A DNA stretch of 64,000 nucleotides from an uncultured Planctomycetia bacterium (GTDB lineage: Bacteria > Omnitrophota > Gorgyraeia > Duberdicusellales > Duberdicusellaceae): contig CAZWJT010000006.1 in assembly GCA_964634935.1 (NCBI GenBank), positions 10,189 to 74,188 of the forward strand, written 5' to 3'. The first letter of the stretch is position 1, and every line of letters starts with the position of its first letter. Shown here piece after piece: positions 1 through 64,000 of this stretch. The notes below the pieces were generated by a model that had not been told where the DNA came from, searched no databases, and saw nothing but the letters and a program-made list of their open reading frames with translations. Position numbers and translations under genes: made by a program.

Positions 1-3000
1 AAACTACGCACACAGAAAACAGGAAAACTTTGGGTTGTGATTGAAGGATACCATGGGGCTGGGAAGAGTTATGCGGCGGAGCAAGTGAAGGATCGGTTAA
101 TACATCTTGGTTTACATCCTGTAGTTTTGAATTTTGATCTGTCCTGGACAGACCGACAAGAACGCAAGCGCTGGCGAGAAGAGGCGCGTTCTCGAGGGTT
201 GGGGCATGATTATTATGATGCGTTGAGACAGAGTCCTAGGCCAATGCATTGGCGGAAAGCGCATTCCGACCAGATGATAAAACAGATTACAGAGGGTACT
301 GGCTTGGTGACAATAGACGAGTGCTACCAGTTTGATGAAACGGGAAGCGCCACGGGAACAGAAAGCTTATTTCTGAGAGCTGATTCTGTTATTCTTGCTG
401 ATGGTGTTTACGCTTCAATGGTTGCCAAGAAAGATTGGGATCTGCGGATTTTCATCAGCATCGATCATGCGCTCTCCAAGAGCATAGCGATGGTTCGTGA
501 TCAAAAACGGGTTTATCGGAATCCGGAAGATACACGCGCTTTATACGAAGAAGTCTATGAGCCAAGCTATCAGAAGTACGCACGGCTCTATAGTCCCGAA
601 GAGAAAGCTGATATCGTGATGCGCGTGGAAAGAATCGATACACAAGCGATGGCCCCCTTGTGCCCCAGGCTCATTAGGACAAAGGAAGTTATGGTCATTC
701 TTGAATGTACGAATCCGGATTGTTCCTTCCAACAGCCGGCAGTTAGAACAAATGTCTGCCGCGTGTGCGGAAATGACCCAGGGAATATCATTCTTGGTGA
801 TGTCGATTTTCTGTCTTTGATCGAAGAAGGTGAGTCGAGTATGTGGCGTTATAAAAAATTAATGCCAGTAGATCCCAATGCTATCGTGAGCGATGGAGAA
901 GGGAATACCCCTGTTATTTATATGCCGAACGTAAGCGCCATGCTTGGTGTGCATGTGTGGTTTAAGCTTGAAATTGTGAACCCCACCGGGACATTTAAAG
1001 ATCGGGAAGCCTCTTACGTAGTTTCTTTAAGCCGGCAATACGGTCAAGAAAATCTGGTGATGCAATCCACGGGGAATACGGCAATTTCTATTACCCATTA
1101 TGCTGGATTAGCCGGAATTCCTTCCTGGGCTTTTATACCCGAAACAAGTACCTACAAACTTTTCATGCCCGAAAAAAGAAAACCGAATAAAATAATCGCT
1201 GTTCAGGGTCATCCTATCGATGTGAAGAATTTTGCTGAAGATTTCGCGATGCGGTATGGATTTCCTAAAATATCTCCCTTCTATGAACGTTGTGAAGCAA
1301 ACGCAACGCAGGCTTATGAGATTGCCGAAGCGCTTTTACGAAGAAAGCTCCCTGAGCAAGATATTCTCCGGGGCGGCTCCTTCGATTACTATATCCAGAC
1401 GATAGCGGCTGGTATGGGTCCGATTGGTTATTATCTTGCGATGAAACGGCTACGGCAATGGACACAAGGAAAAGTGGCTGTTCCTAAAATTGTGGCGGTA
1501 GAGGTGAGCGAATTTGCGCCTATTCAAGCTGCGTGGGACCGTGATCTTTCAGAAGTTGGCGAAGAAGTAGCAACCCCATACTTTCCTGATCATCCTTTGT
1601 TTGAGCCGACATTATGGACTACGAATATTAGAAAATATTATCCACATTTAAGAAGAATGCTTAAGGACACACACGGAACACTTACCTTAGTTACTCCAGA
1701 AGAGGTAGCTGTTGCGATGTCTGATTTTGGCGTGAAAGAAGAGCTGGAGAGCGTAGGATATAAACTGAGCGCCACTGAAAATGCTTCATTTGTCGGGTTT
1801 ACCGGGATGGTCCATTTAATTCAATCAGGAAATATTCCTCAAGGCAGTAAAATCATCCTCATGCTTACCGGGAAAGGGTTGCACCCACAACACATTCTTG
1901 AAAAGCCGGATTGCATCATCAATCCCCGGGAGCATAAGCCGCAAGATGCAGTTCGCATGAGTTCCTTTGTTGATTCTTCGGCAGTACTGTTCGAAAGCAA
2001 TGCCTTTTTATTTTTAGGAAGCATCGTGCTCGGGTTATTTTTATTGGGTATTTTGAAAACGCTCTCATCCCCGTTGACTTTGCGGGCACTCTATTTCCAT
2101 TCCGTTGCTCCACGCAGATTTTTAGATAACGGCGGTTATGCGGTCGGCAGAAAATTGTTTGGCAGAATGCGCGGCGCGATTAAAAGTATTTTTGGTAAAT
2201 CGTATGCTGCCCAGGCTCCGCCTCAGATTATCATCATCCCCGCATTTCGCTATGCAAAAAGCAAAAAATACTTGCTGCAAATAGCCACCCAAACCGCGAG
2301 AATAACACAAACAAAAATTCCATATTGTCCTTGTGTCACCATAGCACAACCGGTTCCTTTTTCTTCGTTAACCGATCAGATAGGCGGACGCTACGCACGG
2401 GGCAGAAAGCAGTATATTTTACCGAGTGATCCACCGTTTGTTTTTCAAGATTCGCCCGTAGTGGTTCTCACGGATATTGATCTTACCGGGTATGATCGTT
2501 ACGGAGATACAAAGTCATATGTGTTTGGGAGAACATATTTTCGCAAGCGGGTAGTATTTTTATCGACATACCGTCTGGCTAGCTCTGAGCCTGCTGTCGG
2601 TATCGCGCGAAATGTCAAGAATGCGCTTCATGAGTTTGGGCATCTCGTTGGGCTTGATCACTGCTTTTGTCAGGGGTGTGTCATGCGTTTTTCAGTTTTT
2701 CCGGAACAGCTTGACGGAACCAAAGCGGAATTCTGTGATTACTGTTCTCAGAGATTAGATGAACTATTTTCCCAGGGTAAAGCCTGGTCATTCGCATTTG
2801 TTCCTTTTATTTCGTTGTCGATTCTCGGAGTGATTTTTCTTCTCTGTTGTATCCGGGCAGTATTGAAACGACGGAACGTTGATTTCTGTAGCCGCCAGGA
2901 AAAGAACGACGGATATTTATGTTCCAGTTTGCAGCAATTGCGGAAATTAGGACAGAGACCAATAAGCCGACGGACTTTCTTGGGCGTCACAACGGCAGCG

Positions 3001-6000: not shown

Positions 6001-9000
6001 GAGGAAGCTTGTCAGGATTATTTTCATCCGGAACGGTATGGTATCGCTGCATTGAATGTGTTGAGAATGACTACTACACAGGGGGATATTCGGAATCAAG
6101 CCCGAGGATTAATTAAAATTTGGGGAGAACAAATTTTTCTTCTGCGCGCAACCAAAAAAACACAGCAAAAGAAAGGTACTCAAGCATCCGCATCGTATGA
6201 TGGGATATTTTCTGTTCCAATTCTTATCGGAATCGTCGTTGCTGTTATCTTTTTCTCGAAGGTTTTTGTTTACGTTGTTCAATTGCTGGAAACCGTCTCA
6301 AAAAAGAAGATTTTCCAAGAAGAATCAGAACGGTCGCTGTGGAGTTTTCAAAAAAGGTTCCGGTCTACCTTCCGTGGCTGGCGGGGGCCGGAGTCCGCCA
6401 CAGCGGCCGTATTTTTTGAAACTGTTTTTGAGATTGGTATGCTTCTGGGTATTTTATTCTTGATGTTGTATTTTAAGACTGCTCTAACGAGTGATGATGT
6501 AGACAACCCAGGAGAATTTTGTAATCAGGCTTCTGGCGAAAAAGCCCCCGACCCTCAGGTTCCGCTTGACGCAATCTTTTCCGACACACCGGAATTTTCC
6601 CGTTGTTTTGATCGGATTTGGACTGAGCTTGCGAAGGCTTCAGGATCTCTTGAGGGGCTGCGAGCAATGGATATGGAAGAATTTGCCAAAAGGCTTGGCG
6701 GAAAGAAACTTATAACACTGACGAAAATATTTAAACGTGCCAAAAAGAGTGTTCCGTTTGGTATTTTTATCTCTCCCCGTGTATTTGAGCATATCATTAC
6801 GATCAGAAGATTCATCTGTGACCATCCAACAGATCCAATGGTGCGACATTTTGATTCAACACTGCGTAGTCTGGCGCAGGTTCAAGAGATTGATGCTCCC
6901 GGCTGGTATTATAATCCAATCAAGGGATGCACGAAGGCCTATGTTTTTCATGAATTTCTTGAGTCGAGTTTTTATGAAAGCGGAGTTATTGATGTTCATT
7001 TCGAATATTTTCTCAATGATCTGCATCCCGGAGTTCTCCTCGGGGAATTGGCCTTTTCGGCGTTGCTCGGCAAAGAGTGTTTTGAGCAATCCCGGGCAAT
7101 TATAGAAAGACGTCTCACAACTCTGGTTGAATTTGGCGAGGAACTTGAGCGTGCGCAAGGAATGAAACCGTGGGATAACATTAGATTTGATACAGGTAAA
7201 CCTTTAAGAATATTTTTAGGCTATTCTGCGGATGAGTATCATCGTTATGCCATACAATTGTGGAGAAAAGCGGCAGGGTTTTCTGTGCAACGAGAAAATT
7301 CGCAATGTATCGCATTTTTACCTGGGTGGATAACCATCTTTGGAATTTCTTTTGGGCTTCTTGTTCTTTTCGTCGCAGCAATTTTCTACCTGTGGCGGCG
7401 GATTAAACAAGAAGCAGTCTCTTTCCAGAAGATTGGCGGAACCGTGTATGTTCAGGGTGAGCATTTTCACGCTTTTACCGTGATTCGCGGCATTGATTTT
7501 GTTCCACACGTTTTTAGGCCGGCTTGTGGAGGAGTTGTTTTTCAGCGAGTAGACCGAGGTTTTGATCGCGCTACCCTGGAAGAAGCTGCTTCGTATGCGC
7601 GGATGCTTGCTGAGCACACGGATACTGTTGCAGCGCTTTGGAATACATATCTGCAAGGTGCGGCCACGGTTATCATATCCGATGGCTTACAGACAAAAGA
7701 GAAAATTTTATATCTTTGGGCTCGAGTCCTTGCGGAGCAGGGAATTCTAGGTTGGCAGTACATTGTTACTTCGGAACTCGGCACTGCCGAAGAAGATATG
7801 GCGTTCATCGCTGATGTTGCATACGCTACGGGGTTGAAGCGATATTTAGAAAGTGGACGTTTGAGCGAGGCAGATAAGCAAATAATCCGTTTCCATCTGC
7901 GCAAAAAGAGCTGGCATAATGTTCCAATTGAATACTTATGGGATGCGAATCTTGTTCTTCCAGCCGCCGGTTGTCCGGAAAAGTTTGGCGGACATCCGCC
8001 ATTTCGCTGGGATTTGGGGGGATTGAGCGTAGTTTCCGGAATACAGACAATACTTTGGTCAACAAAACAAAATTTTCCTGCGAACATTCTCATCGATGGG
8101 TTTGGATTTACCGGCCGCTCTATTGCCCGCTCCATTATTAAGCGTATCCCCGATGAAGTACGGATTAGCGGTATTGCACAACACAACGAAGCAGTTTTTT
8201 CTTCAGAAGGCATCGATAGTTTTAATCTGCTTCACTATATTAGCGCGCGGGAAAAAGGATTAGCTTCATCCGAGCTCGGTATTCTTGCCCGCCGGGAAAA
8301 ATCTCTGATGCCACGGCAGAAATTACTGAGACAAAATACGGATATTCTTATTTTGGCAAACCGGGATCACGAACTGACCTTTGAAGAGGTTAAATCGTTC
8401 AATGCGAAGATCGTGATCGTTGCGATACCGGGTGTTTTAAGTGTTGCCCATATGGATTGGCTGCATCGCCAAGGAGTTTTTTGTGTTTCGTCAATCTGGT
8501 TAAACGGCGGAATTCTTTTTGGAGCGCGGGAAGAACTCTTGCATAAATTGGTTGGTCGCGAACGTCTGCATGTTCGTGATATGCGCCGGCATGTCGAAAG
8601 CGGCGTCCGGGAAGTAGCGGTAACCGTAATGTTTGAAGAGCTTGACCGATGCAAATCCCATAGCGTATCGAGTGTTGTTGAAATGGGGCGTACAATGGCA
8701 AGTCAAATACGTTCCCATGAATTTGCTTTCTGGGATGCCATTCGGAATTCCGCTTCATCTCAGGGAGTTTCTTTGGAAGCGCTTGCTCAATCTCAGGATA
8801 CAGAGAAGGTAGTATCCGTAATTTCAGATCGGGCTTCTCCAGAATTAGCCCCTGTAACCCAATTGGCACTAGCAAACTATCGGGACGGAAGAAACGCCGT
8901 ATTCGGACTTTTAAGTGCGGTTCTGGAGATCGCCCGGCAACGGGTTATTTATAATGAGCATTCGGCAGAACGTGCCCTCCAGGCAATCAATTCAGATGAT

Positions 9001-45000: not shown

Positions 45001-48000
45001 ATCGATCTCTTCTTTGGTTGCGATGAAGATAAGTCGGAGTTGATCGTTACTTCAGGAATAAGACCAAATTCAGTTGCAGCGTATATGCTGCGCAATTATC
45101 TTGATCGGCATGGAATGCCGTTATTGTATAAAGATATACGTTTGAGTATCGCGCCAAGCATAGAATCAAGGCTGTTGAACAGAATATCCGGAGCCAAAAG
45201 AGATTCGGCGCCCGAAATTGTGTGGCAGTTTATGGAAACTTTGGCACCGCCATCCCTGATATATCAGTATCCGATTCATCGCTATGGCGATGTTCCGTGT
45301 TATCTTGATTCCATAAAGTCGACAAAAAACCCGCCACAAATCATCAGCTTTGCTGTTGAGCCGCTAGGAAGATATGTCCAGCTGAAAAAAGCCGGGGTTT
45401 CTTTCCAGGGGGTAGTCGATACCTATAATGAGGGTTGGACGGGATCCGAACGAAAATATCTGTTTGCGGATGGCTCACTTATTTTTGGTTGGCAGGAGTC
45501 AGCGCGTTCTCAACGGCAACCAGCGCATAACATGGTAATTCCGCCTCTTGCCCGCACCGTTCAAGGTAAAGACTTATGCCGTGTCTGTCGAGTTCATTGC
45601 AGGAATCGCCAAGAGTATCTTCACGATTTAGGATTATCAAAATTTGGCGGAGCTGAACCAAGCCAACAAAACTCCTCTAAAACTTCCGCGGTTTCGTCAA
45701 TATCGCCGACATTGGTGCTTACGGTAATTTTTATCGTATTTTTGTTTTCCGCTGTATTTTCGCTGAGCCCGGCTTCTCGAAAACCGCAATTCGTGTGGAG
45801 CAGAGAAGGAAAAAGTCTCGGTTATGCTCCGCTTGATCTAAAAATTCCGCTTATCGTTTCTCGCTTGCTGCAAAATCATCAGCTTAGCCGTACACCACTT
45901 GTGTCCATGCGCCGGCTGAGCAACTTTACCGGCAAGCGGGTTTTTCTCAAAGATGAATCTTGTCAGATTTCCCATTCATTCAAAATGCGCGGTGTTCTGG
46001 CAGAAGTGGAAGAGGCAGTCAGCGAATATATTGCGATGATCAAGAAATCTTATTTTCCGAGCGCAATGCCTTTTTATGTTGTCACTCAGACTGTGGGTAA
46101 CCACGGCATCGCGATGATTGAAGCAACCCGTTTTTGTATCGAGAAATACAGAAATATTTTTCCCCAATACCAACGATGGATTAACGGTATTGAGCCGGTT
46201 GTTTTTACCACAATATTACTTCCGGCAGTAAAACGGGCGGGTCTGCATGACGCGTTGTCTTTATACCGGATGACTGTCGGCAATAATGAGCAAGGGGCTA
46301 TATACGATAGATTCGGAACCTATGCGCAAGCACGCATGGGACGGGAAGCGTTCATCGCTTTACATCCCGCGAATGCTGTTTACATGGAGCACGGAGGTTT
46401 GACGATTATGGCCGGGCATGCTTCTGCCGGGATAGAAATTGCCGAACAGCTTCAAGAGCGAGGTATCAACAAGGCAAGAAAGGTTGCTTTACTTATTCCC
46501 GTAGGAGCCGGCGGGCCGTTGGGTATTGCCGCGGGATTAAAAATGGAGATGCCGCATGCGGCTTCGGTTATGGTGCAAACGGACCGGTATTCGGCGTTCG
46601 TCCGCAGTCTTATTGCCGGATCACTTATGAATAATGATTTTACACAAATAGAACCGCTTGTTATCAAAGGGAAAGAATTCGTTTTTGAGGACGGCATTGC
46701 CGTGGATGCTCCGGAAAAGGAAGCGATACATATCGCTCAATCCGTTCTTGATGCCGCAGTTACGGTAGATTCTTTGAGTGCTTTGAATCGCGGCGCCATA
46801 ATTACCTATGCTGACCTCGCGGATTTCTACGCTGATCGCGCCGTAGTCGTGGGAGGGACTACCGCCGTAGCTGCCGAGGCGCTTTTGGAACATTCCACTC
46901 ATCTCGAGTCGCTCCGCCAGGCGGATGTGATCGTGCTTTTCGGCACCGAAGGCAATGTTGATCCTTGTATCACGCAATATATCAAACAACGAGCGCAAGA
47001 TAATAAATCAACAAGCTTATTATGCTCGCCAGCATGGTTGGGATTTTCCCTGATCGGATTGATACTGATCGGGATAGCTATGCTGCAATATTCCGCGCAG
47101 CTGCCATTGGAGGCGCATTTTGATAAAGATAGTTTAAGTCAAAAACGAGATATGTTTACCAATTTTCGGATAAGCTGTTCTGCGGATAGGCAAAGACACG
47201 ATTTAAGAGTCGGTGATATTATGCGGCGAGAACTTCCGTCAGCTTATTTTGCCTTCAGATGCATGTTGGCAGTGCGGTTTATCCTTGACGAATATGCTCC
47301 AGATAAACCGGTTATTGTATGGCAGAACGAGCGCCTGGGGACACTTTATCCATATATCAATGACACGCTTAAAAAAATGTTCGGGATCGTTGGGATTACA
47401 AGGGCTGACCTTATTGCTCCAGAGGCGATCAGTTCCGGGATAAGACAGGCGCGTTTTGTTTTGGTGCGCGAGAAAATTTCTTCGGAGAGACCCGAGCATT
47501 CCTGGTGCCTGGATGCGGTCAGGAAATTATCTATAGAATTAGCTGCACCGATCGTGTTTATCGATCACAGCGAACATCATTTCTCTGCGGCGCAATTATA
47601 TATTCAGAGCGTTGAAAATAGCAAAAAAAGGCAAACCATCGAAGTTGATTGCCGGGGGAAAGCGCAGGCGTATATTCCAGAAGGCGCTTTAGCGCAAAGA
47701 CCTTTCTTTATTCTTGTGAATGCCAATGTATATCCGGGGACGCGGTCGCTGTTTGATGATAATGAGTATTTTCTTGAACCATCTAAGTCGTGCGTCGTAG
47801 ATTTGCAAGATGAGCAAATAAACTTCTATTTAGCCTTTAGGCGTTTCTTTGCGCAAGAGATTGTCATGAAAAAGAGATATGATGAATCACGTTCTTTCTC
47901 CATAAGTCCGGCTTTGGCTCTGAGCGATGTCTTCCCCGATATGAGGGGTAAGGGTAGCCGCGACAGCAGTGATCATAGTATTAATTTATCATTAAATCTG

Positions 48001-51000
48001 CCGCTAGCTGATTTAAACATTTATGCCCCGCTATTATTATTGCTTTTCCTGATCGCAACCGGACCGGTATGCGCATTGAACCTACGCAGATTGTTCGGAG
48101 GTAAAGGGAAGGATGTTAACCCGGCTAGGGATCCCGGACAAGGAAGATCAGCTTCACAGCAAATACAATCTACGCAGGAGGTTTTGGCAACAGAATTGAT
48201 AGAGCAGGCAGATCAGCTTTCTCGCCGCCTGGAAACTCTGCAGTCAAAAGATACCGCAGAGCGCCTGAAAAGGATTATTATGGCGGTTGCGGCTCCGGAA
48301 CTAACACATCTTCAGGAAGGATTGATTCCTGTTGGGTTAAAAGATTATGTTGTGGAATTCCTGGCAATGGCAGAAGAGGTTTGGGCGGCAAGGATAGAAG
48401 GTATTTTAACTAAGGTCGATCAGGCTAAAAGAGAAAGATATGATGCCGCAATCGGAGCATTAAAGAAATGGCATCGTCGATTCGCGGAAACCAGGACAAA
48501 AACAGAAAAAACAGCCGCCCGTGTTCAAGAAGAAAAACCTAAGCCGCCCACCGAGATAAAAGAGGCTACGGCCGAAGAGTTGGCAGACATACAAACGATG
48601 CTGGGGATGTTGGATCATTCAAGGGTTGTTTCTTTTGCAACCGTTGTTGGAGAATTTGTTGAAGCAATAGAGAAGCTTGAGCCTGTTCTGTATGCAGAAC
48701 GAGTCAGTAAGCTTGTTTTTGCCTGCGCATATAATGACGGATATTTTCTGGATGAAAAGAGCCATACTTTCGGGGTCGATACGGATACCGCAAGAAAATT
48801 TCTCGTATTGCCCCGGGAAGTTTGGCATAAAACACTCAAAGGTATTTTTGAAGGCAAGGACGAGTTAAAACAACGCTACGAAAAATCCGCCCGGGTATTG
48901 AACCAGCTTTATTTGAAGATGGGCGCACCTTTGGCAAAACCGAGTGGTAGCAGTCAATTGAGCACGGATTCCTGCATTGGGATTGCGCAGTTTTTGGTTT
49001 CTGCTCAGCCGCATGCCCCTCCCGGATTTTCGATAACCGGTATTGTCATTCTCGTTTTAATAGCACTAGATTTGTACACAAAAGCGTTCGTAAGAAAGAG
49101 ATTCCCCGCGCATTTAGACCAAGAAGATCCCTACCATATTGGGCTTAAAGCTCCTAGAGGCGTATCAGTTACCCGCGCATTTCACCATGCCGGTCGCAGT
49201 GTTGGGTTTCCTTTAATAGGACTTGGTATTGTCAGTTGTTATTTGGTCATGAATCCCGCATTGACTACGCTCATGCGCATAGGTTTTGTTTTTCTCGCAG
49301 GAGGATTCCTTGCTCACGGCATCGAAGCATTCATGCGCGCCGGAGGCACGGATTGGATCGCCATACGCACAAGATTAAATGCCCGGATTATGAATATCGC
49401 CGATGTTTACCAGAGATTAGGGGGACTGCTTCTTATACTCGACGTTTTTCCGCGCTTTTTATTCGTGGTTCTGGTTTTTATTCTGATAAGCAGCGTAAAG
49501 TCGCGCCTGGAATTCGCAAAAATCATGTCGCAGACATGCCTCGCTAAATATTTGCGGCAACACGGTAAAGATCGTCTGGCGCAGAAGTTATCCAATGAAA
49601 CAGATATAAGGAACATAAGGGTATTTCCGCGGATAAGCGATAAGCCAGCCTGGAATATTCTTGCTGCGAACGCGTTATTGGGTAACCAAGCGCAAAGTAT
49701 CATGCTTGCAGAGCCGGTACAGGTGCAAGTTGAGGGCAGGCGGCATCTTTTGTATCACGTAAGCGCTGCCGGCAACGTTGCCATGTCTAGCATTACTGAT
49801 CCTTTTGCCTGGGTTGGGGGTGAGGTGGTTTTGTCTGAAGAAATAGAAGCAGTGCTTTCTGCCATTGATGAATTGCGTAGCAATGAAGCTATGGTTGGAG
49901 GTATTTCGATAAAGCAGATTGCAGAAAAAATTAATTGTACAGATATTGCCAGATTGGAAGAACTGCTGCATTTATTAATCGAAAGGAAGCATTTACAATC
50001 ATTTTTTGTTTCGCGCAAAAAGAGCTTAGAAGATCAAGCAAAGGCTAAAGAATTAACCAAACAACGCGCAACACACCAGATAGATACTGATACCTATACC
50101 AGAGAAATGCGTATTTTAGAAGAAAGAGCAAGAGAAGAACGGTTTCTATTTAGTCCGGCTGAATTGGAAAGAAGGCAATTTTCATCACGAAGAGCACAAG
50201 CAGTCATTTCGGATGAGGATGAGCTGTATAGATTGGCAGGTGCGATAACTTGGTTTTTTGGCGACAGCCTCAATGGAACCATTCAAGGAGCTTTGCATAC
50301 AGCAATGTACCAGTTGGAAAATTACTTCAGTGACGAAGGCGGTAAGGCGGTAAAAGGCCTAAATGAGAAGATCCATTCCATCCGCCGCGACAATGATTTA
50401 TATCTAAGGGTAAGTGATGCTAGGATGTCAGGTACTCTGAATGCTTTAAGTAAGGAAGATATAGACCGATTTATTATGCAAATGGCTGGACAGTTCAAAG
50501 AAGTGATAGCTTTGTTGGAAAAAGCCAGAGAGAATATAGTTTTTGATCGACAGATAGTTGCTGCAGAAGATATTCAATCCGTAGATTTGTTTTACAGGCA
50601 ACTCGAAATAAGTCTTACTCATTTTCTGTTTGTCTATGATGTATACCGCGCTGTAGCTGAGGAGATTAATAAAAATAAAGAGGATGGTCCAAACACTTCA
50701 AGTTTAGCTCTGGTTTCTCCTGGTGTAGCCACTGCCGTTATTTTAAGTGCCGGATTAATAGTATTGGCTTTTATTCTTGTAATTGAATTTCAGAGACTGA
50801 ATAAGCTTAAGAAGTTGTACAAATATTTATATGATAAAGGATTTATTGGGGAGAAAAGGTTAGAGGAGTTGCTTTGTATTGTTAAAGAACCGGATCAGGA
50901 AAGTATCGCGTTACTTTTTAATCGCCAGGAATTCGATTTATCAGAGGATTGTAAAGCATTTATAAAACTGTGGGAACGCGTAATAGGGCAACTGAAAGAG

Positions 51001-54000
51001 TTGCATCCCAGAATAAAGTCTCCGGTGTATTTCTTACAGAAGAAATCAGCTGCAAATGTCTCTGGGTTGCTTTCTGCGCAGATTTACTATACCTTCGCTT
51101 TAGCCAAACCATTAAACAGTAGATTAATATATTTGATTGTTTTATCTTCTCATGGGATGCTTGATGAAGCAACTGTTAACGAATTGCGCCGTATTCAAAA
51201 AGAATTCGATGTGCTGATATCTTCCTCTACTAAGATACAAAGAGAAATTGATCATGTCATGCATATATGGGGAGTAAGGCCTGAAACGAATAACAGGGAG
51301 GATGCTAATCAGAAGGGTTCGGAACCGGTATATTCTTTATCCATGGCATTATTACCCATATCTGTAGTTATGATTGCCTTGGGGATATCTCTTTTAATCT
51401 TTATTCTAGCGGTTCGCCCGGGAGAATTTTTAACTAAACCATGGATACGGAGTAATGCGTTGGTTGTTGCGGCATCGCTTTTTGGCTTTGGACTCGGCAT
51501 GGTCTTTGTTCTCTGGCTCGTATTAGGTAACTTTACGATCGCTGCTTTTATTGGCGTGGTTTATTTTATTGGCTGTTTCATATTTATCAAACAGCTGGAA
51601 CAGGATAGTATTAGGCAGTCGTTAGAACAGGACAGAGAAGAAGCGCAGTTAAGGCAAGCGCGGGCGAAAGAGGATAAAAGAAGAAGAAAAGAGAAAAGAA
51701 GAGAAAGAAATGAAGCTGTCAGGGCAAAAGCTGACAAGTTAAAACAAATGACCCCGGTTTGTCAAAAATCTATTAAACAGCCAATGCCGCAGAGGTTGCC
51801 AATAAAGCCGGTTAAGAATGCCAGACAAATTTTTGAAGAGCATTTACTGGGATTTGTTGTGGGTGGTCCTACCGCAGAAGACAAAGAGAGGATTAAACAG
51901 TTTGTTTTATACTGTGACATTACCGGGACGTCTTCTATCTGGGCTGCGGTATGCGCGGCATTTTTTACGCGAGATATTCATGGGCAATACCTTTTCAGTG
52001 AACGCAGCTTGGCCACGTTTTTACGACACGTTGCTTCTTCTCAATTGTCCATTACAATCGGATGGATCAAGAATTTTATCGCTCAGGTAGAAGAAATGAA
52101 CCAGCTCGTCGAAGGTGATGGCAGGGTTTTGCGTAAACGTGATTATTTAGCATGCCTGGCAATCGTCGATAGCTTAAACTTGCACCGGCCGTACTTATTG
52201 CCTACGCAAGGAAGAGGCATCGCATTCGCGGAATTAAGGTCATTTAAACAGAGGCGGACGGCATTTATCCAAGGAGAAATTGATCTTTTGCGCTTGCGCA
52301 GTACGATAGCTTCCATTGTGCTGGGTGATGAGGTGAAAGAATTATGTAGTGAAGTCTCGTTGCTGTCTCCTTTTTTTGTGCGGCATTTAGTCGAAGAGTA
52401 TCCCGAGGGTGAGTTTTTCGGTCGGGATAATCAAAAAGTGCTTCATCGACAGCTTGGATTAAAAACGGGCATTGGACTATCCGCCATGAAAACAACAGTC
52501 GCGCAGGAAGTATATTTTGCGAATGCAGATTATATCGGGTGGCCGTTCGTTAAGGCGTTCTATCAAAACAGGATTTCTTGCCGGGAACGCACCATGCGGC
52601 ATTTGGAAAAGTTTTGCGATATAGCTGATATGCAGAGTAGCTATGCGGAATATCAACATGAACTGGATCGAATTGAAGCATTGCTGGTATCGGTTCCTTT
52701 TTCAATCGAATATCTCGATAGATGCGCCAGTCACACTATGCGCGATATGAGTAAAAATAAGCAATTCGCTTTATCAGCGACCCGTATTACGGCCATAGCG
52801 ATGAGTCGTGGCTTTATTCTATTGTCTGATATCAGTCAAAGCTCCAGCTTTCCCGGGGTCGAAAATGCCCAGTTAAAAAGATTGCTTTTACAGCATGTCG
52901 AGATGGTGCTTGCAGATATTTCTGCAGCAAAAGAACGGGAACGGCAGGCCTGGCAGGAGGAGAAAGAAAAAAGAAAGCAAGTAGAGTTACTTTTAGCTTC
53001 GATCGCGGTTTTGACGCGCGAAGGAAGATTTAGCGAAGCAAAACCTTTGGCGCAAGCTGCCTCCGAACTCGATAGCATCGCGTTTCCGCTTTTTGTGTTA
53101 GTGAGTGCACCGGTTGAAAGAAAAGTTTTTGAGTCACAGCTTACAGCATTGGCTTTTGCGTTGAAGGAGCAAGATAAAGCGCGGATTGCCCGTAGTGCTG
53201 CCTATTTTGCTAATCTTATGCAAGAGTTTGCACAGGTTTTAGGGTTGCTTTTGTCTAGGCTTAATTTTTCTGCGGATATTTCAGAAAGTCAGGCAGAGGT
53301 TGATGTGGCGATTTTTTATCTGCTTACGCAATTACTTCCTGGAGAAAAGACCTTAGCATTAGCGCAAAGAGTCGTTGGTTTTATTCATTACCAGGGTCCC
53401 CAGCAAGATGCTGTTTTAAGCGCAGGGATAGCGTTTTTTGAGTCTATTCCCATTCCTGATATTATCGAAAGAGGCGCGCGTGAGGCGCCATTAGAAGTTA
53501 AAATCGCCAGTGATGAAGAGGCGATGATTACCCAGTATCTTGGGGAGATCGGACAGTATCGGTTGTTAACACATTTAGAAGAAATTGTTCTTGGAGTCAG
53601 AGCCCGGTGCGCGGCGGGTAAATCAAGAGAAAAGGCGATTGAGGCACTTATCTTATGTAACCGCCGGCTTGTAGTTTCTTGGGCAAAGAAATATCGCTGG
53701 TCAGGAATTAACTTTTCAGACTTGGTTGGCGAAGGAAATCTTGGTTTGATACGGGCGGCAGGAGTTACAAGAAAGAATAAAGTTACTGGGCTACCAACAG
53801 ACAAGGAACCGAAGGAGCGGGAATACAGGAAATTCGATCCGGCGCACGGAAGCAGGTTTTCTACTTACGCATCGTGGTGGATTCGTCAGGCAATTATCCG
53901 ATTCATAAAAAGCAATAGAGGGCAGATTCGTCTGCCGGAAAGTTTACGGCAGGCAATAGACGATTTTAAAGCATTGTGTGCCCAAAAAGGGTTTAATCCG

Positions 54001-57000
54001 GAAGATCCCAACCTCACCTCGGAAGATGTAGGCATGCTTCCGCAACGATTTAATACTATCCGCGCGGGAATGTTTTTAGTATTTTCGCTTGATCCTGGAG
54101 GAGAAGAAGTTGACGAGAGACAACCTCGTTTAGCCGATGTTATCGGTGAACGAGACGACAGTATTGAGCTATCATCGGTAGAGAGAGTTTTACGCGGAGT
54201 AGTTGCAAAAACAGAAAGACGCCTGCGGGAACAATGGTCAAGGGTCAATTCACAGAAAGAGGTTGAACGAAATATCTTGATATTTGAAATAAGACTTGCG
54301 TCTTCATTAGGGCTGGGGATAGCAGAGTATTCAACTTTGGAAGAGACTGGAGAAAGAGTAGAACTTACTCGTGAGAGAGTAAGGCAGATAGAGAAGCAGG
54401 CCCGTCCTATTTTTGAGGAAGAGCTATTATCCTCCGGTGTGACCCTAGAGGAAATTAAAGGGTTGCGTAACAGTGTCCAAAACCGTTCCAGAGATAACTC
54501 TGTTTTTTCAAGTCCCGCGATCGTTACGCCGGTAGCGATGGATGGAATAAGCAACTTCAGCTTGCTTGCTTTTTTGTGCATGAGTTTATTTGTGTTTTCG
54601 GTATTATGGGCAACTCAAAATCCGCGCAGCCCGCCGCAGGAGAGAGATGCTCATGTTTCTGCTGCAACCCACAAGAAAGAAAAACTCCTGCCTGTCATTC
54701 AAAAGAAATACGGCCTCGGGAATATTTTACATCTCGAAGATACCTTTAATCAGGCACGCATCATCACGGTGGTCATCTTTGGATGTATCGGTGCTCTGAT
54801 CGGCGTTTTGATACACGTTTCTCCTGGTTCAGGCTATTTAGGGCTCATGATCTCGGCTGTCATTGGCGGAGTGGTTTTGATTGTTGTTCATAATTGGATA
54901 TTTCCTAAGTCACCAGTCCGAGAAACCGAAGGGATACTGAGCGATCTGGAAAGGTCTTCTTCGCCGGAAATCTTGGACGGTATTTTCCGAGCGCTTCGCA
55001 TTCAATCACAATCCAAGGGGTTTATACAGCCAGTGGATTTATTGCACGGATGGACGGCGGGCGTGGTTCAGGAAGTCGGAGAATTTGCTTCTCCATCAGG
55101 GCATCCATTAGCCGCATTGCCGTTACCTTTTTCAGTTGTTCATCCTTTGGATGTTTTTGCATATGATAATTCGCGAGAGTTCATCACCTATGCATTTAAG
55201 ACAGTTTATGGAGAACTTGGGGTATCCGAGGAAACAATGGATGGGATTATCAGGATTCTTACCGATTCATACGGTCAGGATTTATCTACGGTAGCGCGTA
55301 GTCTTAGGGAATACATCTTATCAAGGGATATTGCGGATATTTTTGAGCGATACAGGCGGCAAAATTCTATTGATAAGAAATTTGAATTGGTGCGACCATA
55401 TCTACAAGGACCAGTAGTTGCGGATATCGGAACAGGAACCGGGGAGTTAGCGTTGCGTATCCTTGATCGACTTCCACAGGTAAGAAAGGTTATCGCAACC
55501 GATTCCGTATCTTATCTTGGGGTAACACATCCGCAGATAGACTTTAGACAGCAGACCCATGAGAATGCGCTCCCTCTAGAATCGGGATTAGTCAATACCG
55601 CATTGCTCAGTTATGTTTTTCATCATATGAGCCGAGACACACAGCAGGATATTGCCGATGAACTTTATCGTATTCTTGCTCCCGGAGGCAGAGTTGTCAT
55701 CCTGGAGGATACCTATTCTGCGGTTTTACCGGCACAACAGTCGAGTGAGCTCATGAAGCGTTTTGTGGCACTCGAATATTTAGCGCAAATGCGGGTTTTG
55801 GGTTTGAGCGACTGGTTGAGTTTTCAGGTATTCCGCGGATTTGATATCAGCTTAACATTCACCTATCGCACCCTTGAATCATGGGCAAGGTTCTTTGAAG
55901 CGGCAGGTTTTCGTATTCTGCAAACAGATTTTATCGGCCGGCCCCAGGGTAATTTTCACATAGTTCCCCGCGGATTAATTGTAATCGAAAAAGTTTCCGA
56001 AGATGAGAAGGAATTTGATCCTAGGCCATTATTCCCAATCCGAGCAATCATGCGGCACGATCCTCATCTTTGCGAAGGTGCGCTCAATATTGGCACAGTT
56101 CAGAGAGATCCATCGTTAAGCGGTAAAGATATTCTCGGCTTTAATTTTGAGAACATCATAGATAAATTCCGCACCTTTATTTTAAGGCATAACGAAGAAG
56201 AACTAGCGAGTCTCACGCTGTGCCAAACACACGATGCGATATATTTTAGGATCCGCTTAGCTGAGCGGTTGAGGAACAAAGGTATCGGCAGTGCGTGGTT
56301 TCATGATCTCCTTGTGCCTTATTTTTCAAGCCTTGCTGATTCAGGGATACAAGATATACGTACGTATTGGTACTGCGCAGAAGGCGGTTATGGCGAATTT
56401 GTCATGGAGAAACTACATTTTGCTCATAAAAGAGCGATAACCCTGGATACCCATGAAATAGTATATTTTTGTGCATCAATGGTGAATAGATGTAGCCCTA
56501 TTCAGCCAGACAAAGGTGTTGGTCAGTCTTTGGACCAGTCGTCTTGCTCTCAGCTTGGCGTTGCTTTATCTGGAACAGGAATCATAGGATCACTGATTTT
56601 ATTCTGTGTGTCTGCGTGCGTCGTGTGTATGTTAGCGCATGCATCGCAGGGCAATAGGGTACGTGTTTTAGATTCTTCAGACAGAACAAGCCCGGAGAAT
56701 TTGCTTGTAGGTGAAAGTGTGTTTACCCCGGTTGATGTAATCGCGCATGATATTTTTCTGCAAGCACGAAATGGTAACGCCTCAGGGTTTAAATTACGCT
56801 GGGATTTGCGCTTTATGCATTATCAGGAATTCATTAAGCACGCCGCGGCGATAAACATCGCAGTCCGAAAACTCGTCCAGAGCTCACCGCGTTATAGCCG
56901 AGAAGTAATACGCCAAGCGCTTCTTACGAGAATCGAGATGGTCGATCAAAGCATGAAACCTGTTTCCGAAGGAGGATATCTGGCGTCATTATCGGAGAAA

Positions 57001-60000
57001 GGAAGGGGAATTGTAGACTGTGCGAGGAAAATAGCTGTATCCCGTAATTCCAGGAGAACTATTCTTTTGTATCAATTAGAGCGGCTGATCGATGTGCCAT
57101 TTGATTGGTTTACGTCTTTATCCTATCCCTCCCCCCAGCAGCATCTGTTCATTGGTTTTATGCCTACAGTCGGTTGTTCTTCTCAATGCGATCATTGTTA
57201 CTTGAATACGCCATTCTGCGTCTATAGCATGCCGTGGATCTGGGTTAAGCAATTGCTGCAGCTGTGGCCGCACATCCGTCCAATGTGGGAAACCGCCGAC
57301 TATATCCGAGATTATTATGATTGGGTTTTTGACAAAACAGCAGTGGATATTATCAAGGAATGCGCCGAAAATATTTTTGAAGATAATTTTGCTTCGATTA
57401 GTACCTCAGGGATTCGTCCAGGGTCTTCCGTTGCTTCTGCCTTGAACGGATTATGTCAGTTTTTGTATGACAGAGAGTATCATTTGCGGATGCAATGGAG
57501 TTTTGCTCCGAGCGTTGAATTGCGGATATTGGGAAAAGAAAATTTTGTGAAGATGCTTGAATTCAATGCGCTCGTCATGCGCCAGATTCGTCAATCCGGG
57601 GGTGAGGTTCTCCTCCCTTGGTATGATTTTTGCCGCGATAGCGACCAGGACGTAGATGTTGCGTCTTTGCTCATGTCATTCGCTGGTTCCGCTTACGCAC
57701 CAGAGCCAACGCCCTGGATTGCGGAGAGGGGAAGATTGCGCGCTTTGCAAGCACAGGGAGTAAGATTTGTTTCTCATGCGACGAAGTTCTATCAGGGGAA
57801 CATGCCCTCTGATGATTGTTTGTGTTTATACCGCGTTATGCCCAACGCGACCTTAGGCAAAAGATCGTTAGACCGCGATCAGGACGTCAATTATGTCCAT
57901 GAACGGTCGCTGCTGAAAGATGAAACAGGTGATGGTAAGACAAAACATACTTTGTGTACTGTATGTAATCTGAATTGTCCTCAGCGAAAAGAATGTTTGG
58001 TTACCTTGGGGTTATCGAAAACCGGGGGCAAGGTAACTCGTCTATCGAGTTTTGCCGTCGAAACGCCATTCACAACAACGGGAAGTATCGTCATCGCAGT
58101 GTTTATATTTTGGTTGTTGCTTAGTCCGCTCCATTTTTCTCGGGATAAGCGTGACGCCAGAAAAAAGCAGAAGGCGCAAAGGTATAGAGATTTTTTAGAT
58201 AAAAAAGGCAAGCCAGGCATGCGAATTTCTTCTCATGTTTCTGCGCGAATTCGGGAAATTAAACCCGGTAAGATCGTTGATCCGCTGGAGCAGTATATAG
58301 TCACTAAGCGGGAGCAGTTTAATTCCCTGTATTATATTTTCACGGACCTAATTAATCAAGATGGTCCGCAGAGTGAATATATCTTGCGCAGTGTTCCCGA
58401 TATCGCAGGTTTTCTGTATCTGGCCAATCTTTTGGCCGAAGAAATTCCGCAAACAAAATGGGCTGATTTTATTCGGCCGATCCATACCGGCGATGGTTTT
58501 AGTTTCGATTGGATTCTTTCCATTGCTCAGTTATCCACCGAAGAAGAACGCTTTATGGCTCTTTTAAGGCGGATCATGCAGATTGATCAAACTCCGCTTA
58601 CAATGCTTTTTGAAGGTACGAGGAATCGGTTACGCGGATATGTACGAGGCGGTTTATCGGTAGAACAATTGTATGCAATGGTGTGTTCCATTAAACGGGA
58701 CTATCGGTTATGGAATCAGCGCGAAAAAGCGGATGCCAGGGATAAAGCCATAAAGCGAGAGAAATATGTATCCTCATTTATGAACAGCCCGCTTGATCTC
58801 AAACGATTTGCCATAATGAGGGCGTTGAATTTCCGTATACCGCAACATATTCTTACACCAAAGAATATTACTGCGCTTTGTTTAACCGATGCCTGTCCGC
58901 TTCAATGTCGGCACTGCTTGCAGGGGTTTACTGGGAGGGGTAAAGCTTTAACCGAGGAAGAAGTCTTGGGGGCGGTTGATTATTCCAATGAGCAAAATGT
59001 ACATGGTTTGCTTTTAAGCGGCGGAGACGCGTGGCTTAAAAAAGACTTGGTACGGGTTGCAATTTTAGAAACAAACGCAAAGATTGTCAATATTGCTACA
59101 ACCGGTGTCTGGGCAAAGACGCTTGAATCAGCGCGGAGTGTTTTATCAGAGATACAGACAATGTACGATGAGCGCGTAGCTTCTGGTAAGAGGCCGGTTA
59201 AAATTAGCGTTGATTTAAGTATCGACGCGTTTCACCGCGGACGGCACATGAACAACGATGGGAATATTGCTGATCGTGTCCCGGCAGCGTATGTTGCCAA
59301 TCTTGTTCAGGTCGCGCTCCAGGAGTTTCCCTTGCTGCGCGTAGGTTTAAGCGGGCAGATGATGCTGCCGATGGATTGGCAAGATGAAATATTAGTTGAG
59401 TTTGCCAACCGGGGTTTACAACCGATACTAAGAATTACCGATTCTCTTCAGGGTACTACTGATGCCGGCAGAGAAGTTGAGTTTATGACGCAAGGAAAGA
59501 TTATTTTTAAGAACAGCAAGTTTGAAATTGGTTTAGTAAATATGGCAACTGTGCAAATAGGACGAGGTGTTTTATTGTACTGGGATGAGATTGTCAGCCA
59601 GTGGAATACGGTTTTTATCGATAAGGATGCGCTTAAAATTCCCAGTCAGGTTAGTCTGACAATATGCGGTGATGGTCAAGTATACCATGGGGATGAAAGC
59701 GTAAAAATTATGACGCTGGGATCATTCCGTAACAGATGTGAAATACCATCAACTATTGCGCTGGAAGACAGAAGAAAAGAAGTGGCGCAGCGCTTAAAAG
59801 AGATATTGCACTCTACCTGTAATGATCCGTTGGTTATTCTTCGCTATGTCCACCCTGTTCTGATTCGCCGGATTGCCGAGGAGATAGCAGGACCCCAAAG
59901 AATAGGTAATGCTGGACCTAATGTCTGGAATGTGTATTTACAATATCCTGAAACCAGACTTTATTTAACACAATATGCAGCGCTCATTCTTGCAGGATTT

Positions 60001-64000: not shown

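Follow-up and report, generated by a model that had tools for sequence, protein, structure and literature searches.

The 64,000-nucleotide stretch analysed here (the window; positions 10,189 to 74,188 of contig CAZWJT010000006.1, assembly GCA_964634935.1) comes from an uncultured Planctomycetia bacterium that GTDB places in the Omnitrophota. It contains the internal piece of a giant gene whose product carries many hydrophobic, helix-length stretches between enzyme-like modules, here also called beads. Frame +1 (nucleotides (nt) 1-63999) has 0 stop codons across 21,333 codons, and the other five frames have 800-1,388 stops. The giant open reading frame (ORF) leaves the window at both ends and is therefore absent from the ORF listing, which comprises six short spurious ORFs. 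The guanine-plus-cytosine (GC) content is even at 0.43-0.47, and the GC skew is positive throughout. Scans of the 64-kb window for tRNA and Rfam families found none, and exact 60-mers of the window have no match in the genome or metagenome collections searched. Only two tandem repeats are present, with periods of 18 and 21 and about 2 copies, at nt 51546-51710.

The modules look like ordinary free-standing genes; fusions of glutamate dehydrogenase (GDH) with a kinase, for example, occur as proteins of about 800 amino acids (aa). This would fit an ORF that is not one protein, being instead a stop-free row of genes that are translated separately, or an artefact of assembly or annotation. Such an explanation is very unlikely. 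A run of 21,333 sense codons is beyond chance, the composition is even along the window, and two independent loci from metagenome-assembled genomes (MAGs), L001 (21.8 kb) and L003 (13 kb), are likewise wholly stop-free. Separate translation of the modules is also rejected because in-frame Shine-Dalgarno plus ATG sites show no enrichment, numbering 3 against 6 and 2 in other frames.

Hydrophobic segments were scanned on the Kyte-Doolittle (KD) scale in 19-residue windows, counting non-overlapping segments, with the summed dG of Hessa 2005 as a second scale. Frame +1 contains 50 segments at KD >= 2.0, 59 at >= 1.8, and 66 at >= 1.6. The Hessa 2005 scale gives 38 segments with dG <= 0, against 2.0-3.2 (maximum 7) in global, 300-aa, and 100-aa block shuffles. 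The density is one helix per 427 aa at KD >= 2.0 and one per 362 aa at KD >= 1.8. A sequence-only reading of this DNA had counted about 60 transmembrane (TM) helices regularly interrupting soluble domains. That number is reached only with weak peaks included; 50 remain at KD >= 2.0, and three of the weak ones are buried cores. The spacing is domain-scale and not regular, with gaps of 0 to 2,922 aa, a median of 311, and a coefficient of variation of 1.2. All 31 single positions listed in that reading fall on a peak, 30 of them at KD >= 2.0, and its five multi-pass clusters are all found in the scan. The weak position, at nt 41980, has KD 1.85 and dG +4.5, but its L001 counterpart (aa 2036-2062) reaches KD 2.19. 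Two isolated helices, at nt 60340-60414 and 61144-61239, are additional to that list.

The strongly hydrophobic stretches are 20-35 uncharged residues each. Soluble Pfam and NCBIfam envelopes, with a coverage of 16.7%, contain none of the 50 segments at KD >= 2.0 (P = 1e-4). The range KD 1.8-2.0 adds three peaks inside the GDH, PALP, and GNAT domain cores, so that a threshold of 2.0 parts both classes well in the giant protein. These three weak peaks are what speaks for the stretches being buried hydrophobic cores of globular domains, a view that is hardly credible for the rest. The strong stretches lie clear of every soluble envelope, keep their uncharged length, and are flanked by polar linkers and lysine/arginine (K/R) caps. 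They also diverge faster than the modules yet stay hydrophobic, and related soluble ORFs have nearly no such segments: long related ORFs of other types contain 0-1 in 1,555-4,325 aa. Proline clusters in two zones, one 16-25 residues from the helix C-edge and one no more than 7 residues from that edge, with few prolines mid-helix; this is the pattern of N-capped, straight helices some 20 residues long. The helices run about 20 residues from a proline or small-residue N-cap to a K/R-capped C-end. They start 3-62 aa past a recognisable domain end, and the following domain begins 37-160+ aa further on. On this evidence the stretches are best described as genuine membrane-spanning anchor helices at the junctions between evolutionary modules. 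The earlier assignment as membrane helices and not globular cores is upheld by the empty soluble envelopes, the proline pattern, and conservation in L001.

About 20 distinct enzyme families, assigned by Pfam and NCBIfam profile searches, tile the chain. NCBIfam equivalog matches are all far below their cut-offs, which indicates that the modules are divergent copies. The internal paralog families of the window are one with three copies and one with two only. Besides the modules of Table 1, the beads comprise a weak phosphorylase-like match, HEAT repeats, a GH13 amylase-like module, a CheR-like methyltransferase, a cytidine deaminase, a FeeM-like acyltransferase, a second pyridoxal phosphate (PLP) enzyme, S-adenosylmethionine (SAM) methyltransferases, and a GNAT. 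Two radical SAM matches also occur among them, separate from the Cys-motif modules described below. The second internal paralog pair (aa 4397-4567 and 10827-10996; nt 13189-13701 and 32479-32988) is 34% identical and unannotated, and is matched too by L001 aa 5139-5285.

The longest TM-free lobe had been said to carry GDH, PRK-like, and helicase domains together. This is borne out for a helix-free span of aa 6972-9893 (nt 20914-29679), in which the P-loop match is weak. The GDH matches ELFV_dehydrog (2.6e-58) and GdhA_Arch (1.5e-114), the helicase matches AAA_11/AAA_12, and the PRK-like P-loop matches a nucleoside-kinase family at 3.5e-4. The best match of the GDH bead is a partial Omnitrophota MAG protein with 41% identity. 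The GDH and PRK-like kinase pair (nt 21055-22632) is also found free-standing in the proteins P0002, P0004, and P0005, which have about 800-1,060 aa and come, for example, from a Verrucomicrobiae MAG. The giant gene thus seems to have taken in a ready-made two-domain gene.

The HtrA-like protease has His, Asp, and Ser motifs that align with HtrA 1l1j, and its catalytic motifs are intact. Two of the multi-pass clusters are, judged from their profile matches, true integral-membrane enzymes. One contains an ICMT-like membrane methyltransferase at aa 11167-11236 (isopcys_mtase 2.6e-5, ICMT 2.6e-4). The other comprises LspA, matched over positions 1-141 of the 142 in the Peptidase_A8 model (5.2e-8); a PDB search of this cluster gave no match. 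A family search of the multi-pass cluster aa 11689-12000 gave no match either. The sigma-70 module aligns to SigA structures with regions 1.2, 2, and 4.2 conserved and carries about 22 inserted aa in region 2. It lies 52 aa upstream of a helix, so this sigma factor would be membrane-tethered unless released.

Three paralogous Cys-motif beads (aa 12846-13365, 14775-15254, and 18858-19402) are 35-40% identical. The family is marked by GCSxQCDHC plus a C-terminal CxxCxxxC, and a CxxxCxxC motif is present. It has 37 matches in 1.84 billion representative proteins, many of them within long proteins. Sec-type signal peptides occur in 5 of the 6 closest complete free-standing homologs and in 10 of 22 overall. 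The possibility that these modules are cytoplasmic radical-SAM-like enzymes is rejected, as they have no Pfam or PDB profile match and their nearest free-standing relatives have signal peptides. An AlphaFold2 model of a bracketed module from the 3-sequence alignment reached a pLDDT of 37 and is unusable. The layout resembles an embedded type I unit, which comprises a signal anchor, an exported domain, and a stop-transfer helix with a basic flank: in Cys-motif module 1, K/R residues precede the entry helix and follow the exit helix, and free-standing relatives begin with a signal peptide. In contrast to a type I unit, those in the window recur and lie within a chain of over 21,000 residues, and the entry helix is absent in paralog 2. 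The L001 ortholog of module 1 shows the same K/R layout around both helices. The entry helix (aa 12841-12865) is kept in L001 at 24% identity versus 60% for the module, and the closing helix (aa 13315-13341) has counterparts in all three paralogs and in L001.

Related loci were searched with the alignment of the three Cys-motif paralogs. Three were found, all in MAGs labelled Planctomycetales or Planctomycetia, and a metagenome scan with the same alignment gave no match. L001 (CAZRVK010000003.1) is stop-free over the whole 21.8 kb fetched and contains 22 helices in 7,262 aa, or one per 330 aa. It has at least 7 modules in common with the window, at 42-69% identity and in a different order. The shared window modules include aa 6574-6971, 12027-12132, 12405-13375, 14001-14373, 15235-15695, and 20665-21096. 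Seven window helices, among them aa 15228-15259 and 15670-15695, align with L001 hydrophobic segments, and their positions are kept. Six of these helices are 20-35% identical versus 43-62% for their modules, and the seventh is 53% identical versus 60%. Helices that diverge faster than modules yet stay hydrophobic behave as lipid-facing anchors and not as buried cores. The helix at aa 6949-6971 forms the right edge of a shared module (35% versus 47% identity), and the homology block W6574-6971 / L001 1-406 stops at its C-edge. Homology-block edges lie at or beside helices, which suggests that the beads are evolutionary cassettes moving with their helices, and the different module order points to cassette shuffling inside giant genes. 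L001 differs from the window in that a helix is absent at some module junctions and the K/R polarity is weaker, at 8 versus 4.

L003 (CAZFPS010000005.1; 12,976 nt, 4,325 aa) is wholly stop-free and has the Cys-motif domain and one strong hydrophobic helix, which indicates that helix density varies greatly among related giant genes. Homologs of aa 12381-13360 (nt 37141-40080) and aa 15696-16006 (nt 47086-48018) were sought in a word-indexed search of 5.8 billion proteins, and none were found. The first of these stretches, of 980 aa, is matched at 61% identity in a GTDB MAG, and giant ORFs of this kind therefore seem to be missing from that protein collection.

The flanks of the helices are strongly polar. 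Over the first 12 residues past an isolated helix, the enrichment is 2.4-fold for Lys and 1.8-fold for Arg (P = 5e-7 and 6e-5), and upstream of these helices it is about 2-fold for Ser, Gln, and Asn. The sequence-only reading had described K/R-rich patches after the helices and taken them as positive-inside markers. The patches themselves are real: a polybasic tract at nt 13789-13920 (aa 4597-4640), about 10 residues past a TM helix, contains 19 K/R in 44 residues, and another at nt 63170-63250 contains 12 in 28. Their use as simple markers has no clean support: of 29 informative isolated helices, 24 are followed by a K/R cap irrespective of the orientation expected for them, and the patches are thus not clean inside markers.

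The interpretation preferred here, which is given an even chance of being correct, is that the giant chain is threaded through and pinned to the membrane, as a multi-enzyme protein of the Planctomycetes-Verrucomicrobia-Chlamydiae (PVC)/Omnitrophota type. Each helix would be handed to the SRP/Sec/YidC machinery during ribosomal synthesis, which would thread the growing protein through the cytoplasmic membrane and fix it there at intervals of about 400 residues. The HtrA-like protease and the three Cys-motif modules would be exported loops, each starting from a signal-anchor-like helix and ending at a stop-transfer helix with a K/R cap. The cytoplasmic side would hold most cofactor-dependent modules, namely GDH, helicase, CheR, deaminase, PLP enzyme, sigma-70, methyltransferases, and GNAT. 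The LspA and ICMT-like clusters would be ordinary integral-membrane enzymes within the chain. In the shuffling between related giant genes, the helices do move along with their modules; position and hydrophobicity are kept, and sequence is not.

LspA has both termini in the cytoplasm. Accordingly, the LspA termini serve as markers for the inside together with the cofactor-dependent modules and sigma-70, and the HtrA-like protease and Cys-motif modules serve as markers for the outside. Single helices flank the protease and each of the three Cys-motif modules, next to cofactor-dependent modules. The K/R asymmetry of adjacent isolated helices is anticorrelated (lag-1 r = -0.41, permutation P = 0.024), which indicates an alternating component on top of an orientation-independent K/R cap. 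The parity required for threading is found in 12 of 17 marker-to-marker intervals (P = 0.07), and 7 of the 9 intervals with a single helix link an inside marker to an outside one. From GDH to sigma-70, 10 of 11 markers are in one phase, and one slip in the three-helix cluster aa 18186-18296 would mend the next four markers. A chain with no alternation at all was dropped on the basis of the adjacent-helix anticorrelation, the signal peptides of the Cys-motif family, and the lack of a radical SAM match to it. These patterns are real though partial evidence of threading, and local threading near the exported-type modules has good support.

Several observations weigh against threading of the intact chain. 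Strict alternation over the 50 helices leaves the K/R asymmetry wholly unexplained (|S| = 2 of 102), with 21-23 helices in agreement and 21-23 in disagreement, and an arrangement with all C-ends inside agrees with 32 of 44 informative helices. The K/R count in 15 residues is higher after the helix than before it in 24 of 30 isolated cases, lower in 5, and tied in 1 (sign test P = 5e-4). The last four helices at the 3' side all have a K/R asymmetry of +2 and cannot all run out-to-in in an intact chain. Conflicts occur in 5 of the 17 marker intervals, at PALP-1, at the FeeM-like module, from sigma-70 to a methyltransferase, and from GNAT to a methyltransferase. In L001, the parity fits only 2 of 5 marker intervals. 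The composition of the beads shows no alternation along the window, and distant free-standing Cys-motif members lack signal peptides, which makes their use as an outside marker uncertain. Long distant relatives are without the K/R polarity (13 versus 10).

Some of these tests are limited in themselves. The global parity test is uninformative because the phase slips at clusters, and some uncharged stretches are 30-43 aa long and may each form two helices, a reading that would alter the parities. A full in/out map is not derivable from sequence heuristics, and part of the K/R signal is orientation-independent. The expectation that consecutive soluble domains alternate between the two sides thus survives in part: the lag-1 anticorrelation, the four bracketed exported-type modules, and the 12 of 17 intervals favour it, and the L001 intervals and the lack of a full topology do not. 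Cofactor-dependent domains outside the cell had been named as a sign against the architecture. Some SAM-, acyl-carrier-, and PLP-dependent modules do fall on the wrong side at every threshold; these are the FeeM-like module, PALP-1, and one or more methyltransferases.

The uniform flank polarity, with Ser/Gln/Asn upstream and K/R downstream (24 versus 5), would be accounted for by a one-sided array, with nearly all soluble modules on the cytoplasmic side of the membrane and the C-end of each helix on that side as well. This arrangement is considered rather unlikely. In its favour, a single orientation fits 32 of the 44 informative helices versus 21-23 for alternation, cofactor-dependent modules occur on both parities, and the same ORF has peptidase modules (M54, the HtrA-like protease with intact motifs, and LspA). 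Both preprints on giant proteins (West-Roberts et al. 2023, bioRxiv 10.1101/2023.11.21.568195; 2026 preprint, 10.64898/2026.06.07.730766) raise cleavage or a cytoplasmic-face reading. A one-sided array needs either cutting near the helices, which would turn a polyprotein into N-terminally anchored enzymes, or 'frustrated' or partly inserted anchors. Against it, the helices look like straight 20-residue spans and not like re-entrant wedges, and it would put the exported-type modules (HtrA-like protease, signal-peptide family) in the wrong place. The absence of the polarity in the distant long relatives speaks against this arrangement as well.

Signals for such cutting were also sought at the junctions; the lack there of a conserved motif, a known sorting signal, or a lipobox, and the lack of hidden partner helices, speak against the one-sided array. 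No conserved motif is found at the module junctions of the window, where only a compositional bias is seen. Sorting signals (LPXTG, PEP-CTERM, PGF-CTERM, and GlyGly-CTERM) are rejected, as a helix and basic flank are present but no model recurs; when the 30 isolated modules were scanned with NCBIfam, no sorting-signal model matched more than a single member, and such matches had E >= 0.5. The scan gave scattered single weak matches, several of them to small membrane proteins. Internal lipoprotein signals as LspA sites are rejected too, since the window matches the lipobox [LVI][ASTVI][GAS]C only 3 times, in a chance-like way. Hidden partner helices of weak hydrophobicity, which could pair with single spans as hairpins, are likewise rejected, because hydrophobicity does not rise above background in the 120 aa on either side.

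P0155, a long protein only distantly related to the window, contains six internal lipoprotein-signal-like segments (seen in P0154 too), which end in [IL][GS]GC followed by AP, AA, or EP. In P0155 they lie at aa 28-51, 286-310, 1198-1218, 1940-1968, 2081-2093, and 2918-2936. The segments inspected have a second hydrophobic helix about 25 aa downstream, whereas the window has an LspA module without such lipoboxes. A separate juxtamembrane motif, VLWA[TA][QR]NPRxxP, ends three helices of the window (nt 54556-54636, 60340-60435, and 61144-61260), which form a small paralogous helix-plus-flank family.

Flaviviridae-type polyproteins have functional units split by TM segments and a trypsin-fold serine protease in the chain, as in the window. 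They differ from the window, which is a cellular gene, is roughly ten times longer or more, and has no junction cleavage motif that was found. A bacterial membrane polyprotein, in which the near-uniform junction polarity would reflect a cut before most helices and the pieces would insert with the N-tail out and the C-end in, is improbable. If true, dozens of anchored cytoplasmic enzymes, including a sigma factor, would come from one gene of 60+ kb.

Table 1. Features of the giant ORF in the window. KD and dG are as defined in the text; K/R gives Lys/Arg counts in the 15 residues before/after the helix (N15/C15).
Feature	Nucleotides	Strand	Residues (aa)	Remarks
Giant-gene internal piece	1..63999	+		one continuous ORF, 21,333 codons, open at both window ends
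Threonine-synthase-like PLP enzyme		+	296-624	Pfam/NCBIfam
Isolated TM helix	1996..2055	+	666-685	KD 2.34, dG -1.1; K/R 1/2
Archaemetzincin M54		+	821-920	Pfam/NCBIfam
Isolated TM helix	2782..2853	+	928-951	7 aa past M54 module; KD 2.71; K/R 2/5
Isolated TM helix	3883..3951	+	1295-1317	KD 2.49; K/R 2/1
TM helix pair	6202..6474	+	2068-2093, 2132-2158	KD 2.67, 2.06
Isolated TM helix	7306..7395	+	2436-2465	KD 2.65, dG -2.9; K/R 3/4
Isolated TM helix	12055..12114	+	4019-4038	KD 2.54; K/R 0/6
Isolated TM helix	12592..12678	+	4198-4226	KD 2.87; K/R 4/2, N side richer
Isolated TM helix	13675..13761	+	4559-4587	KD 2.18; K/R 1/4; then polybasic tract
Isolated TM helix	15256..15336	+	5086-5112	KD 2.97; K/R 1/3
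Isolated TM helix	16894..16968	+	5632-5656	KD 2.96; K/R 1/3
Isolated TM helix	17845..17910	+	5949-5970	KD 3.11, dG -4.8; K/R 1/2
Isolated TM helix	20845..20913	+	6949-6971	48 aa before GDH; KD 2.44
Longest helix-free lobe	21055..29610	+		GDH aa 7019-7432, PRK-like P-loop aa 7482-7544, SF1/IGHMBP2-type helicase aa 9340-9870
Isolated TM helix	29680..29739	+	9894-9913	helicase/HtrA-like protease junction; KD 2.37; K/R 2/5
HtrA/MarP-like serine protease	30211..30735	+		exported-type, single helix each side; Trypsin_2 5e-12; MarP family
Isolated TM helix	30814..30894	+	10272-10298	protease/CheR-like methyltransferase junction; KD 2.57; K/R 3/3
Multi-pass cluster	31999..33918	+	10667-11306	7 helices KD >= 2.0 plus weaker; ICMT-like inside
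Multi-pass cluster	35065..36000	+	11689-12000	3 helices KD >= 2.0, 2 weaker
Isolated TM helix	36457..36534	+	12153-12178	KD 2.75
Isolated TM helix	37192..37263	+	12398-12421	KD 2.52; kept in L001
Isolated TM helix	38521..38595	+	12841-12865	entry to Cys-motif module 1, signal-anchor-like; K/R 4/2
Cys-motif module 1	38629..39900	+		GCSxQCDHC plus C-terminal Cys cluster
Isolated TM helix	39943..40023	+	13315-13341	stop-transfer-like, closes Cys-motif module 1; K/R 2/5
Isolated TM helix	40585..40674	+	13529-13558	KD 2.54; K/R 1/3
Isolated TM helix	41623..41718	+	13875-13906	KD 2.39; K/R 2/0
Weak hydrophobic segment (nt 41980)	41992..42048	+	13998-14016	KD 1.85, dG +4.5
Isolated TM helix	43570..43674	+	14524-14558	35 uncharged residues; KD 2.46
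Cys-motif module 2	44350..45660	+		internal paralog
Isolated TM helix	45682..45777	+	15228-15259	Cys-motif module 2/PLP-enzyme junction; KD 2.68; K/R 2/4
Isolated TM helix	47008..47085	+	15670-15695	3 aa past PLP-enzyme module; K/R 3/1, N side richer
Isolated TM helix	48019..48078	+	16007-16026	KD 2.16; K/R 0/4
LspA multi-pass cluster	49015..49497	+	16339-16499	Peptidase_A8 5.2e-8
Isolated TM helix	50695..50784	+	16899-16928	KD 2.84; K/R 2/5
Three-TM-helix cluster	51325..51588	+	17109-17196	KD 2.5-3.0
Sigma-70 (RpoD/RpoS-like) module	53527..54402	+	17843-18134	Sigma70_r1_2, r2, r4; RpoD/SigA 3e-32
Three-TM-helix cluster	54556..54888	+	18186-18296	one helix plus glycine-rich hairpin
Isolated TM helix	56554..56637	+	18852-18879	entry to Cys-motif module 3; KD 2.70
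Cys-motif module 3	56695..58020	+		internal paralog
Isolated TM helix	58063..58140	+	19355-19380	closes Cys-motif module 3; K/R 3/8
Isolated TM helix	60340..60414	+	20114-20138	ends in VLWAAQNPRDPP; KD 2.35
Isolated TM helix	61144..61239	+	20382-20413	ends in VLWATRNPRRLP; KD 2.01
Isolated TM helix	61756..61824	+	20586-20608	18 aa past GNAT; KD 2.25, dG +3.8; K/R 2/4
Isolated TM helix	63091..63159	+	21031-21053	then K/R patch; KD 2.52; kept in L001

Very large genes are reported in further PVC phyla, including Planctomycetota. West-Roberts et al. (2023) describe giant proteins for which TMHMM and DeepTMHMM disagree, call some predicted localisations 'highly unlikely', and note that peptidase domains might cut the proteins. 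In the 2026 preprint, Omnitrophota giants termed 'multi-enzyme metabolic' contain methyltransferase, radical SAM, GNAT, HEAT, and signal-peptidase-II domains and have about one helix per 370 residues, and all giants of at least 80 kaa (thousand amino acids) fall in DeepTMHMM membrane classes. The terms 'positive-inside' and 'polyprotein' are absent from the text of that preprint. The sequence-only reading compared the window with published giant proteins that have many TM regions, and ORF size, helix density, and domain content bear this out.

Like the Omnitrophota multi-enzyme/Archaeovorin-type giants, the window is a single ORF of tens of thousands of codons, with many divergent housekeeping-type Pfam domains, among them methyltransferases, radical SAM, GNAT, HEAT, and signal peptidase II, and with no dominant repeat, and the localisations of metabolic domains are doubtful in both. 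The helix density of those giants is about one per 370 aa, and that of the window is one per 360-430 aa by hydrophobicity scales and not by DeepTMHMM. SecA_DEAD and/or C39/S8 peptidase domains are present in most published giants, and dockerin I or TSP3 in the dockerin-type/Archaeovorin subtype, whereas none of these has a Pfam match within the window, beyond both ends of which the gene continues. The closest related locus, L001, is labelled a Planctomycetales MAG, whereas the published giants are from Omnitrophota; the window itself contains no marker genes. Preprints have already described this architecture in giant proteins from Omnitrophota and bacteria related to them.

Few products of bacterial genomes are as poorly understood as giant genes in which dozens of housekeeping-type enzymes are joined to one another and to membrane helices. 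The window provides a test set for them, comprising about 50 mapped helices, four bracketed exported-type modules, two embedded membrane enzymes (LspA and ICMT-like) whose topology class is known, and a shuffled relative. The near-universal K/R cap stands against the alternation that an intact chain needs, and this conflict is sharp and testable.

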